Numbered from the stretch's first letter, positions 29,618-32,584 are shown. The stretch is 64,000 nucleotides of DNA from an uncultured Nitrososphaerota archaeon (GCA_964518475.1 CAZFGR010000001.1:96001-160000); one strand, 5' to 3'. Program-made: numbers and translations. Notes: generated by a model from the sequence alone, not told the origin.

Positions 29618-32368
29618 TCATTGCATTACTCTTTCTAACTTTGTTAAAATTGTCGAAGCATCGATTTCCGATGATGCTATGAGACCAAATTTTATAATCC
29701 GGCCCTTAGCTCCTATCTTTTCGATAATTTCTTTCAATTTTTCTAGGAAGTTCTTTGACCCAGCCGCAACTATTGTTGTCTTGCCTCCTACTGTACTAGC
29801 CAGTATGATGTCTCTATGTAAATTGTTTAAACGTTTTAGCACTTCTATCATTAGGTTATGAGGGAAATCAATACGAACTAACAATACGTCTCCGGGAAGC
29901 TTCTTACCCTCCTTTTCAATAATCGTTTCTAGATGATTTAATATTAAGTTCGAGAGCTTCGTAATATGTTCTTGTTGATCTTTCCATTCTTCAAAGAAAC
30001 GTTTAACGGTCTTCGGCAAGTCTCCCGGCACTACTTTGAGAATTTCGCATGATTCCTTTAAGTATTTCTCTTGTTCCTTAATATATTCGTAAGCTCTTTC
30101 ACCAGCTACGAAGATTAATCTTACAACCCCGTCATGGATTCTTCGGGTACCTATTATTTTTATAAACCCAATTTCGCCAGTAGATCGTACATGTGTACCT
30201 CCGCAAGCCTCAACTTCCCAATCCTTTACAGACACTATTCTAAGATATTTTCCAGGAACCGCCCCTCCTTGATAAATCCTCACTCCATATTTCTTTTCAG
30301 CCGTTGTTCTATCAAGTATTTCGATTTTGACTGGTCTGTTCTCCATAACAATCTTATTAGCTAATTCCTCAATCCTGTTTATTTCTTCTTCAGTGAGATT
30401 CTTATGATGTGATATATCAAGTCGCGCGTACTTCTCCGATTTTTCAGCACCAACCTGCCAAACATGAGGCCCCAAAACGTATCGAGCTGCGGCATTAACT
30501 ATGTGTGTAGCTGTATGATGTTTCATGTGTAACCAGCGACGTCTCCAATTTATTTTACCGTGAATTGTTTTTCCTACTAATTCTCTTTCGACCGGAGAAT
30601 CAACAACATGAACGATAACGTTTCCTATTTTCCTGACGTCTACTACCTTAAGTATTTTTCCATCGATAATTATTTCTCCAGTATCCTCTAACTGGCCTCC
30701 ACCTCTTGGATAAAAAGCAGTCTGATCTAGAACTACGTAGTGATTCTTAACAAAGACTATCTTAGCATCAAACTCTTTCATATACTGATCTTCGTAGTAA
30801 AGAGGCTTTGTCGAAGGAAGTCCCTCCAATACTTTTCCTAGACTTCGTCTAATGGTTTCTTCTAGATCTTCTTTTCTTTCTTCTCCACTTTTTGCTTGTT
30901 TTTCTAATCGTATTAAGTCAAAGAAGTTAGGTGGTATCTCTACCTTTACTCCTTGCTTCTTTGCTATCTCTTCCACACTAGATGGGGGTAATCCATGGTT
31001 TATGTAAAGATCTCGTAGTATCTCATAGCGGATAACTTTTAGTTTCTTCTTTTTTATTAGTCTTAACAATTCAGCGATACCTTTCTCGAGCGATGATTTG
31101 TAACGCTGTAGTTCTACTTTCCAAACATCTACAACTACGTCCCGTCCTTCTTCTATTCTCGGAAAACTCTCCGAGAAATAATCTATCTGTTTATGGAGTA
31201 GTTCTTCCCAATCTATTTGGAAATTCATATTCTCCGCTAACGAAACCGCTCTTCTCAGTATCATTCTTAGGTTATATGCGCCTCCCACGTTTGATGGTAT
31301 ACCTCCGTCTGGAATCGCGAAAACTAGAGTTTTTGTGTGATCGAGTATAGCATATACTGCTTCGATGGGTGCTAGTTTATCCTCTAATTCCTTAAGGGAG
31401 AATCCTAGAAGACTTGCTATCTTTTCTCTTGATTTCTTGAACCTTTCTGGGGATTTCGTATCCAGTATACCCGATAGTTTCGCGTATTTCACCAATAGTT
31501 CTTTATCAATTTCTAATCCTATTTGGTTTTTCAACCATTCAAACACGGGTCCAAAAGTAGCTTCATAAATCGTGGGTGTTCTTTGCCTAAACCAAGCGAT
31601 TCTCTCTAGTCCCCACCCAACATCAAGAACTTTTAATTTGAGTGGTGCCCATCTACTATCAATGAATTCATACTGCATAAATACTCCATTAACTATTTCT
31701 AATCCATAAGCAAAAGTTTCAATAGAAGGACCAAAGTTTCCTCCTCCGCTCCATACATCTTCCTTATAGGTGAGTTCCTCTGACGGTATTTCAAGGACTT
31801 TTGTCATGAATTCAAAGTTGTATCGAAGATACTCGTCTTTCCAGTAGATCCATGATTTCTCTGAGTTGAAAGCGTGTTGACCTCCCATCGTAAAACTCGT
31901 GAGATGTCTTCCCGTTTTACCAATGTTATCTATATCGCTAAACTCACCTCCAAACCTAAGACATGGCTGAGGAATAACTAGAGGATTTGCTGGGGGATCC
32001 ACAATTCCCTTAACAACCCAGGGCTGAAAAACAGCTATAGACGCTATTGTGAATTCAATATCATCTCGCCACCTAGCTACCACGGGGTAAGGATCCAAAA
32101 CAGCGTGTCCTCTCTCAGCAAAAAAGCCCGTCCATTTCCGTATGGTGTTGTGAATATCCCACTCCCTAGACCAAGTGTTGTCTTCGATAAATCTATATTC
32201 TCCTTCACATTCAACGTCTCCACAAGTTTCTCGATCCGGATTTAATGTCCAGAAAAACCTTCCACAAACCTTACACTGTTTGCGCACGAATCCCATTTCT
32301 TTAAAGAATTCAGTCTCATATTCTTCCTTACCAAATAGTTTGAATAATTCCTCTTTACTAATGCTCAT
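29618..32368 (-). CDS. alaS: Alanine--tRNA ligase (archaeal type, with editing domain)
   Basis: YPVVARWRDD, FTIASI, QPCLR, DVGWGLER, PSN, editing motifs HTATH and CGGTH. Confidence 0.98.
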   Translation of the reverse strand: MSISKEELFKLFGKEEYETEFFKEMGFVRKQCKVCGRFFWTLNPDRETCGDVECEGEYRFIEDNTWSREWDIHNTIRKWTGFFAERGHAVLDPYPVVARWRDDIEFTIASIAVFQPWVVKGIVDPPANPLVIPQPCLRFGGEFSDIDNIGKTGRHLTSFTMGGQHAFNSEKSWIYWKDEYLRYNFEFMTKVLEIPSEELTYKEDVWSGGGNFGPSIETFAYGLEIVNGVFMQYEFIDSRWAPLKLKVLDVGWGLERIAWFRQRTPTIYEATFGPVFEWLKNQIGLEIDKELLVKYAKLSGILDTKSPERFKKSREKIASLLGFSLKELEDKLAPIEAVYAILDHTKTLVFAIPDGGIPSNVGGAYNLRMILRRAVSLAENMNFQIDWEELLHKQIDYFSESFPRIEEGRDVVVDVWKVELQRYKSSLEKGIAELLRLIKKKKLKVIRYEILRDLYINHGLPPSSVEEIAKKQGVKVEIPPNFFDLIRLEKQAKSGEERKEDLEETIRRSLGKVLEGLPSTKPLYYEDQYMKEFDAKIVFVKNHYVVLDQTAFYPRGGGQLEDTGEIIIDGKILKVVDVRKIGNVIVHVVDSPVERELVGKTIHGKINWRRRWLHMKHHTATHIVNAAARYVLGPHVWQVGAEKSEKYARLDISHHKNLTEEEINRIEELANKIVMENRPVKIEILDRTTAEKKYGVRIYQGGAVPGKYLRIVSVKDWEVEACGGTHVRSTGEIGFIKIIGTRRIHDGVVRLIFVAGERAYEYIKEQEKYLKESCEILKVVPGDLPKTVKRFFEEWKDQQEHITKLSNLILNHLETIIEKEGKKLPGDVLLVRIDFPHNLMIEVLKRLNNLHRDIILASTVGGKTTIVAAGSKNFLEKLKEIIEKIGAKGRIIKFGLIASSEIDASTILTKLERVMQ

Positions 32369-32454
32369 TGTACCGCCCCAGTCATATATAAGGCTACTCA
32401 ATTATATACGTCTCAACTAAAGCTACAGTCTAAAATAATAATAGATGGAGGAAG

Positions 32455-32472
32455 ACGAAAGCTTTTTTAATG
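32455..32472 (+). promoter_or_regulatory. Probable BRE/TATA promoter of tRNA-Ala
   Basis: GAAAG-CTTTTTTAA about 40 nt upstream of the mature tRNA 5' end. Confidence 0.4.
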
Positions 32473-32509
32473 ATGATGGAAGAGATAGATATACCTTTTA
32501 TGGTAAGAT

Positions 32510-32584
32510 GGACGGGTAGCTCAGTGGTAGAGCGCCGGCTTCGCAAGCCGGAGGCCGCGGGTTCGAATCCCGCCCCGTCCACCA
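32510..32584 (+). tRNA. tRNA-Ala(CGC) with atypical A3-U70 pair and encoded CCA
   Basis: GGACGGG-TA-GCTC-AGTGGTA-GAGC-G-CCGGC-TTCGCAA-GCCGG-AGGCC-GCGGG-TTCGAAT-CCCGC-CCCGTCC-A-CCA folds into a perfect cloverleaf. Confidence 0.96.

Follow-up and report, generated by a model that had tools for sequence, protein, structure and literature searches.

An aliphatic residue at the 3:70-reading position of an archaeal alanyl-tRNA synthetase and its A3-U70 tRNA-Ala in Njordarchaeales

Introduction

How an alanyl-tRNA synthetase (AlaRS) selects its tRNA with an altered residue at the position that reads the 3:70 base pair is the question raised by the alaS gene in a 64,000-nucleotide stretch of archaeal DNA (GCA_964518475.1, CAZFGR010000001.1:96001-160000; this whole stretch is hereafter the window). 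Recognition of the G3:U70 pair by AlaRS is the textbook operational RNA code, and, some mitochondria apart, it is considered universal. The gene comes from an archaeon of the order Njordarchaeales (Asgard); its product carries isoleucine at the position of Asp450 of the A. fulgidus enzyme, and all tRNA-Ala genes found in the same genome encode A3-U70. A sequence-only reading of the window had seen in the replacement of Asp by Ile the change expected if the enzyme adapted to A3-U70 tRNA; the comparison reported here supports the specific claim of an adaptive switch from Asp to Ile only partly.

An order of free-living archaea with A3-U70 or U3-A70 lets one observe in nature how a rule of this kind can change. 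A literature search found no paper on the enzyme or the tRNA side and, in the collection searched, none linking G3:U70 with Asgard archaea; none of the Njordarchaeales papers that it listed treats AlaRS/tRNA-Ala recognition.

The alaS gene and the residue equivalent to Asp450

The open reading frame of alaS can be extended to TTG 32401. ATG 32368 is the likelier start, giving 916 residues (29618-32368), because homologues align only from about residue 12-26 and the database copy (P0152) also has 916 residues. Residue numbers below count from TTG 32401 unless the ATG is named. The product shows the class II AlaRS core (Pfam tRNA-synt_2c, PF01411, E = 2.9e-106, residues 89-621) and an editing domain (Pfam tRNA_SAD, PF07973), and its top PDB matches in HMMER searches were P. 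horikoshii 2ZZE (E = 1e-213) and A. fulgidus 3WQY (E = 4e-199). The initial view that catalytic and editing motifs are intact was borne out: the sequence contains RWRDD and GWGLER (catalytic) as well as HHTATH and CGGTH (editing). In the metagenome-assembled genome, which is 91% complete, this is the single full-length AlaRS copy and hence the working enzyme, the further matches being AlaX-like or ThrRS editing domains; two AlaX paralogues lie on genome contig C4.

The minor-groove pentapeptide, known as the 3:70-reading motif (PMC6451123, PMC6055181), is Y-I-N-H-G in this enzyme, with Y449-D450-S451-H452-G453 as its A. fulgidus counterpart. A residue count in the HMMER alignment to 3WQY pairs Asp450 (LYDSHG) with Ile467 (456 from the ATG; codon ATA at 31001-31003), no gap being present within 12 residues of the motif, and the minus-strand codons agree with the motif and the positions first read from the sequence. 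The retained Asn of the PSN motif, also noticed at that stage, aligns with Asn359 of A. fulgidus, the major-groove partner; 145 of the 150 representative AlaRS have Asn in this column. The Asp of RDLY, three residues before the isoleucine, was considered as a compensating carboxylate and ruled out: an acid, E447, already occupies this position in A. fulgidus, and within the clade the residue varies among S, H, R, K, N and Y.

None of the 24 Njordarchaeales AlaRS clusters is acidic at the Asp450 column; 21 have Ile or Leu and three have Val or Thr. The aliphatic state is thus kept across independent assemblies, which excludes a sequencing error, as the sequence-only reading had held. Its argument from a multi-base step from Asp to Ile failed: the nearest relatives with G3:U70 have Val (GTT), one transition from Ile (ATT or ATA), and Asp is nearly absent from Asgard AlaRS, so the change was not from Asp to Ile.

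At the C-terminus, a Pfam DHHA1 (C-Ala) match is lacking in the alaS product and in all 24 Njordarchaeales clusters (P0152-P0175), whereas the same search detected one in most other Asgard AlaRS. The C-terminal region of the product can be aligned with A. fulgidus as far as about residue 879, and the tRNA-elbow-binding C-terminal domain (29618-30100 in alaS) appears diverged throughout Njordarchaeales.

tRNA-Ala genes of the genome and of the order

A tRNA-Ala(CGC) gene lies divergent from alaS, about 110-140 bases off. Its acceptor stem is GGACGGG/CCCGTCC, in which A3 (32512) pairs with U70 (32578), followed by A73 and an encoded CCA. The 2.33-Mb genome contains three tRNA-Ala genes (GGC, CGC and UGC) on two contigs, and all of them share this stem, A73 and the encoded CCA, with no G:U pair at any acceptor-stem position. 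Across Njordarchaeales, 32 tRNA-Ala genes display A-U in 25 cases, G:U in five and U-A in two at 3:70, with neither G-C nor C-G among them. Every non-Ala tRNA has G-C or C-G at 3:70 in the three genomes compared: G000 (the window's own; 42 genes), G010 and, as far as sampled, G001. Because the weak pair persists only in tRNA-Ala, within acceptor stems that are nearly all GC, 3:70 would be under continued selection and is probably still read as the mark of alanine, now in the sense of "not G-C/C-G".

Two separate lineages of the order have the U3-A70 form of tRNA-Ala(CGC) next to alaS, and as their tRNA bodies differ, the flip from A-U to U-A seems to have arisen more than once. Both the genus-level group around the window's genome and the P0163/P0165 lineage keep the divergent alaS/tRNA-Ala(CGC) pair (window 32401-32510; loci L002, L005, L081, L241, L245 and L247); family f2 (G010) does not. 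Since the genes of enzyme and substrate are physically linked, motif and tRNA can be paired on the same contig.

Pairing of enzyme and tRNA within Njordarchaeales

The AlaRS motif was set beside tRNA-Ala for 16 Njordarchaeales lineages, within one genome or one contig. Twelve lineages have Ile or Leu, accompanied by A3-U70 in 11 and by U3-A70 in one (P0165, Y-L-A-Y-G, same contig). Both members with G3:U70 have Val, namely G009 and Candidatus Njordarchaeum guaymaensis (G005), all three tRNA-Ala genes of the latter being G3:U70 and two of them lying on the alaS contig. The P0154 enzyme (G001 lineage) also has Val and stands beside a U3-A70 tRNA-Ala(CGC) on one contig, in a genome that additionally encodes an A3-U70 tRNA-Ala(UGC), demonstrating that Ile or Leu is not required for a non-G:U tRNA. 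An N-terminal alaS fragment (L104) comes with a U3-A70 tRNA-Ala identical to that of G001.

A metagenome scan added one paired lineage (L081), while L082 duplicates G002 and L116 duplicates G005. No tRNA-Ala was present in the 13.8 kb examined around the Thr enzyme P0175 (YTNYG) or in the examined flanks of P0156 and P0158. For P0159, just the 3' half of a tRNA with U70 was found at the contig end, position 3 lying beyond the contig.

The Asp450 column in wider AlaRS samples

Of the 147 nearest representatives of 50%-identity clusters, 84 carry D and 30 carry E at the Asp450 column, and the remaining 33 are non-acidic there. The 95 Asgard clusters outside Njordarchaeales (P0176-P0270) show E in 40, Q in 37, T in 11, R and I in two each, and D, V and S in one each, so that the acid is missing in more than half of them. 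The cytoplasmic AlaRS pentapeptide has been described as always Y-(D/E)-(S/T)-(H/Y)-G (PMC6451123); the "always D/E" rule fails across Asgard archaea. Absence of the carboxylate is common there and is compatible with the canonical tRNA: verified G3:U70 accompanies Val in G014, G025 and G035 (one closed genome of 1.4 Mb with two close relatives), G017 and G036, Arg in G015 and G026, and Gln in G016. Because enzymes with these three residues coexist with verified G3:U70, carboxylate loss is not specific to A3-U70.

Isoleucine itself was observed outside Njordarchaeales in P0111 (YISYG), P0146 (YISEG), and P0207 and P0208 (both YISQG). No tRNA was found on the 5.5-kb contig of P0111, for which a search of genome contigs gave no relatives, or within 10 kb of the alaS of P0207 and P0208; P0146 is encoded on a 405-kb scaffold. 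P0207 and P0208 share 92% identity with the enzyme of G036, a genome that combines a Val AlaRS with a G3:U70 tRNA-Ala.

Phylogeny and column scans

In quick AlaRS trees, G009 branches as sister to all other members, which form a clade with full support, and G005 is nested in the genus-level group of the window's genome with a Shimodaira-Hasegawa-like approximate likelihood ratio test (SH-aLRT) support of 86-93. The genome labels concur, placing G005 in the same genus and G008 and G010-13 in other families. On the best tree the 3:70 state must have changed at least twice; constraining the A-U enzymes to group together costs 21.8 log-likelihood units, and the approximately unbiased test does not formally reject the constrained tree (p-AU 0.057). 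The association offers only one or two independent contrasts, too few for a statistical test.

A first scan of 11 A-U against 13 G:U enzymes gave disjoint residue sets in 7 of 1054 columns, the Asp450 column among them. For a second scan, three extra paired lineages were added and two duplicates removed, leaving 13 non-G:U and 12 G:U lineages; here columns 64, 775 and 780 alone discriminate among 758 ungapped columns. Column 467, whose correlation with the 3:70 pair the sequence-only reading had proposed as its check, separated the groups at first but no longer does so once the Val/U-A lineage is included. Column 64 is Glu in 13 of 13 non-G:U lineages and A, L, P, N, K or V in the 12 G3:U70 lineages (Ala in G005). 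Columns 775 and 780 are aromatic or His in non-G:U lineages versus Leu, Ile, Glu or Val in G:U lineages, the nested G005 included. These three columns may be better candidates than residue 467 for the altered tRNA choice, or they may be mere clade markers. Together with residue 467 they single out positions 456, 53, 764 and 769 (ATG numbering) for mutation. The features discussed are listed in Table 1.

Table 1. Coordinates of alaS, its recognition and editing motifs, and tRNA-Ala genes (window positions unless a locus is named; residues from TTG 32401)
Feature	Coordinates	Strand	Remark
alaS, archaeal-type alanyl-tRNA synthetase	29618..32401	minus	open reading frame from TTG 32401, 927 residues
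Y-I-N-H-G, minor-groove 3:70-reading pentapeptide	30992..31006	minus	codons TAC ATA AAC CAT GGA, 31006-30992
Asn371 (360 from ATG), PSN motif	31289..31291	minus	AAC; major-groove partner
Glu64 (53 from ATG)	32210..32212	minus	just ahead of the last Cys in the N-terminal Cys4 module
Editing-site zinc motifs, combined span	30191..30520	minus	
HHTATH, zinc motif of editing site	30503-30520	minus	residues 628-633, intact
CGGTH, zinc motif of editing site	30191-30205	minus	residues 733-737, intact
Residues 775-780 (764-769 from ATG)	30062..30079	minus	helical region after the editing domain
Residue 775	30077-30079	minus	separates non-G:U from G:U lineages
Residue 780	30062-30064	minus	separates non-G:U from G:U lineages; aromatic or His in non-G:U
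tRNA-Ala(CGC)	32510..32584	plus	divergent from alaS
U3-A70 tRNA-Ala(CGC) in relatives	L241:9801-9876; L242:9801-9876; L247:2947-3023; L036 (G001)		

Interpretation of the isoleucine

The favored explanation, held at a probability of about 0.5, is that Ile456 (ATG numbering) forms part of a permissive background or represents a fine-tuning state, rather than a demonstrated switch. It draws on published mutants as well as on the distributions above. Substitution of the corresponding residue in E. coli AlaRS (D400A, D400N) lowered kcat/Km about 25-fold (Chong et al. 2018, PMC6055181). In A. fulgidus, neither N359A nor D450A disrupted the charging of wild-type tRNA-Ala, and charging of G3:C70 was observed only with Asp450 substitutions, the human enzyme behaving similarly (PMC6055181). 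The sequence-only reading had started from the contact of the Asp with the G3 2-amino group; in the archaeal enzyme the Asp is not a positive determinant, as D450A stays active on G3:U70 tRNA-Ala and only specificity is relaxed (PMC6055181). Archaeal Asp450 would instead act mainly as a filter against Watson-Crick 3:70 pairs and not as an essential positive contact; because it is a negative filter, natural loss of the acid would be tolerated and a move to a Watson-Crick pair would become possible. That Asgard enzymes tolerate the loss with G3:U70 agrees with the prediction from the mutants of A. fulgidus and human AlaRS.

In this explanation, the enzyme of the window is a canonical archaeal-type AlaRS with an aliphatic residue at the minor-groove position that reads 3:70. 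The Njordarchaeales ancestor probably had Val at the Asp450 column, the loss of the acid would have preceded the tRNA change, and the relaxed filter would have let the tRNA-Ala genes pass from G3:U70 to A3-U70 with a single transition in each gene, and now and then further to U3-A70. Reading of 3:70 as "not G-C/C-G" could suffice where only tRNA-Ala has a weak pair among GC-clamped stems, and Ile456 (Ile or Leu in relatives) is one base change from Val. Several observations weigh against this explanation. Within Njordarchaeales, the 12 lineages with Ile or Leu never have G3:U70 and both G3:U70 members have Val, a pattern that would equally fit a real steric role of the larger side chain. D450A was reported to admit G3:C70, yet no G-C pair is used here, and therefore something else must still exclude G-C. 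Moreover, the Asp450 column was one of only seven that separated the two groups before the Val/U-A lineage was added.

Such a steric role is the core of a refined form of the earlier idea, in which Ile or Leu is an adaptive gauge: the bulkier aliphatic side chain would pack on a minor groove that lacks the purine 2-amino group (A-U or U-A) and exclude G3, with Val as a permissive intermediate that takes G:U, A-U and U-A. The 12 of 12 pairings within the order and the two Val lineages with G:U speak for it, as does the nesting of G005 (Val, G3:U70) in the A-U clade, by which residue and tRNA changed together at least twice on the AlaRS tree; the coexistence of A-U and U-A would also suit minor-groove reading, where both pairs look alike. 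P0154, which combines Val with U3-A70 and A3-U70 tRNAs, shows however that Ile or Leu is unneeded; the independent contrasts number only one or two, the tree keeping the A-U enzymes together is not rejected, and the Ile of P0207 and P0208 may coexist with G3:U70, given their identity to the G036 enzyme. The gauge is on balance a rather doubtful explanation. What stands of the proposed adaptation to A3-U70 is the equivalence of the residue to Asp450, the A3-U70 state of all tRNA-Ala genes in the host, and the occurrence of Ile or Leu only with A-U or U-A; the acid is, however, also lost in Val, Arg and Gln enzymes with G3:U70, and a Val enzyme lies beside U3-A70. In its strongest form, the alanine "second genetic code" would have been rewritten in Njordarchaeales with a defined protein determinant, an aliphatic gauge for "no 2-amino group", in which Ile or Leu takes A-U and U-A alone and rejects G:U and G-C, Val takes all weak pairs, and a single-base V/I switch gates the G/A switch in the tRNAs. 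That full version is unlikely.

A different possibility is that residue 456 is irrelevant and recognition has moved to Glu64, to residues 775/780, to the divergent C-terminal domain or elsewhere in the tRNA. Columns 64, 775 and 780 still split the 13 non-G:U from the 12 G:U enzymes and column 467 does not, and the DHHA1 match is missing from the whole order and present in most other Asgard AlaRS. There are precedents as well, since human mitochondrial AlaRS is independent of G3:U70 (PMC6451123) and the alpha subunit of N. equitans AlaRS charges minihelices without G:U (PMC11392972). But a 3:70 pair that is no longer read should yield G-C or C-G in tRNA-Ala, which occurs in 0 of 32 genes, and the three columns may be shared derived characters of one clade, making a relocation of this kind quite unlikely. 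Deamination of A3, which would give inosine at this position of the mature tRNA, is very improbable. The geometry alone would fit, as an I:U wobble without the 2-amino group keeps the wobble shape and suits a non-acidic, hydrophobic residue that needs no amino group; the U3-A70 tRNA-Ala of two lineages would be left unexplained, and we know of no enzyme that deaminates an acceptor-stem adenosine.

Comparison with known systems

The enzyme resembles the A. fulgidus AlaRS-tRNA-Ala complex (3WQY/3WQZ) in having the Cys4 module, class II core, tRNA-recognition, editing and C-terminal regions in the same order, and in keeping Asn359 and the Tyr, His and Gly of Y-x-x-H-G. It differs in the replacement of Asp450 by Ile and of Ser451 by Asn, and its cognate tRNAs carry A3-U70, the classical non-substrate variant. 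The "shape-based" G:U recognition of the human cytoplasmic and A. fulgidus enzymes (PMC6055181) is similar in that the Asp is dispensable for cognate charging and serves as a negative filter. Those cases are laboratory mutants, whereas in Njordarchaeales the acid was lost naturally, across the whole lineage, and the tRNA has changed with it.

Human mitochondrial AlaRS comes closest as a precedent in which the pentapeptide has diverged and charging is independent of G3:U70; its pentapeptide reads C-G-D-L-G and its cognate tRNA lacks G3:U70 (PMC6451123). That enzyme is, however, organellar and of bacterial type, and its tRNA keeps a translocated G5:U68; in Njordarchaeales the Tyr, His and Gly are kept, the acceptor stem has no G:U, and the organism is a free-living archaeon. 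The split AlaRS of N. equitans (PMC11392972), another archaeal enzyme, has a weak G:U-independent activity that is confined to the alpha subunit; the holoenzyme is specific for G3:U70, a pair retained in the cognate tRNA. For engineering, natural combinations of AlaRS and tRNA-Ala in which G3:U70 is ignored could provide orthogonal pairs.

Annotation of tRNA genes in Njordarchaeales

ARAGORN mis-calls several intron-bearing tRNA genes in relatives of the window's genome, reporting tRNA-Ala as Gly, Ser or Leu. A probable tRNA-Ile was also called Ala(AGC), and two genes were called "tRNA-Stop(tta)". The mis-called loci are L074 and L075 (G013), L270 and L271 (G019), L196 (G001), and L172 and L186 (G010). 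Non-canonical tRNA intron positions, in the D-arm and the anticodon stem, seem common in Njordarchaeales.

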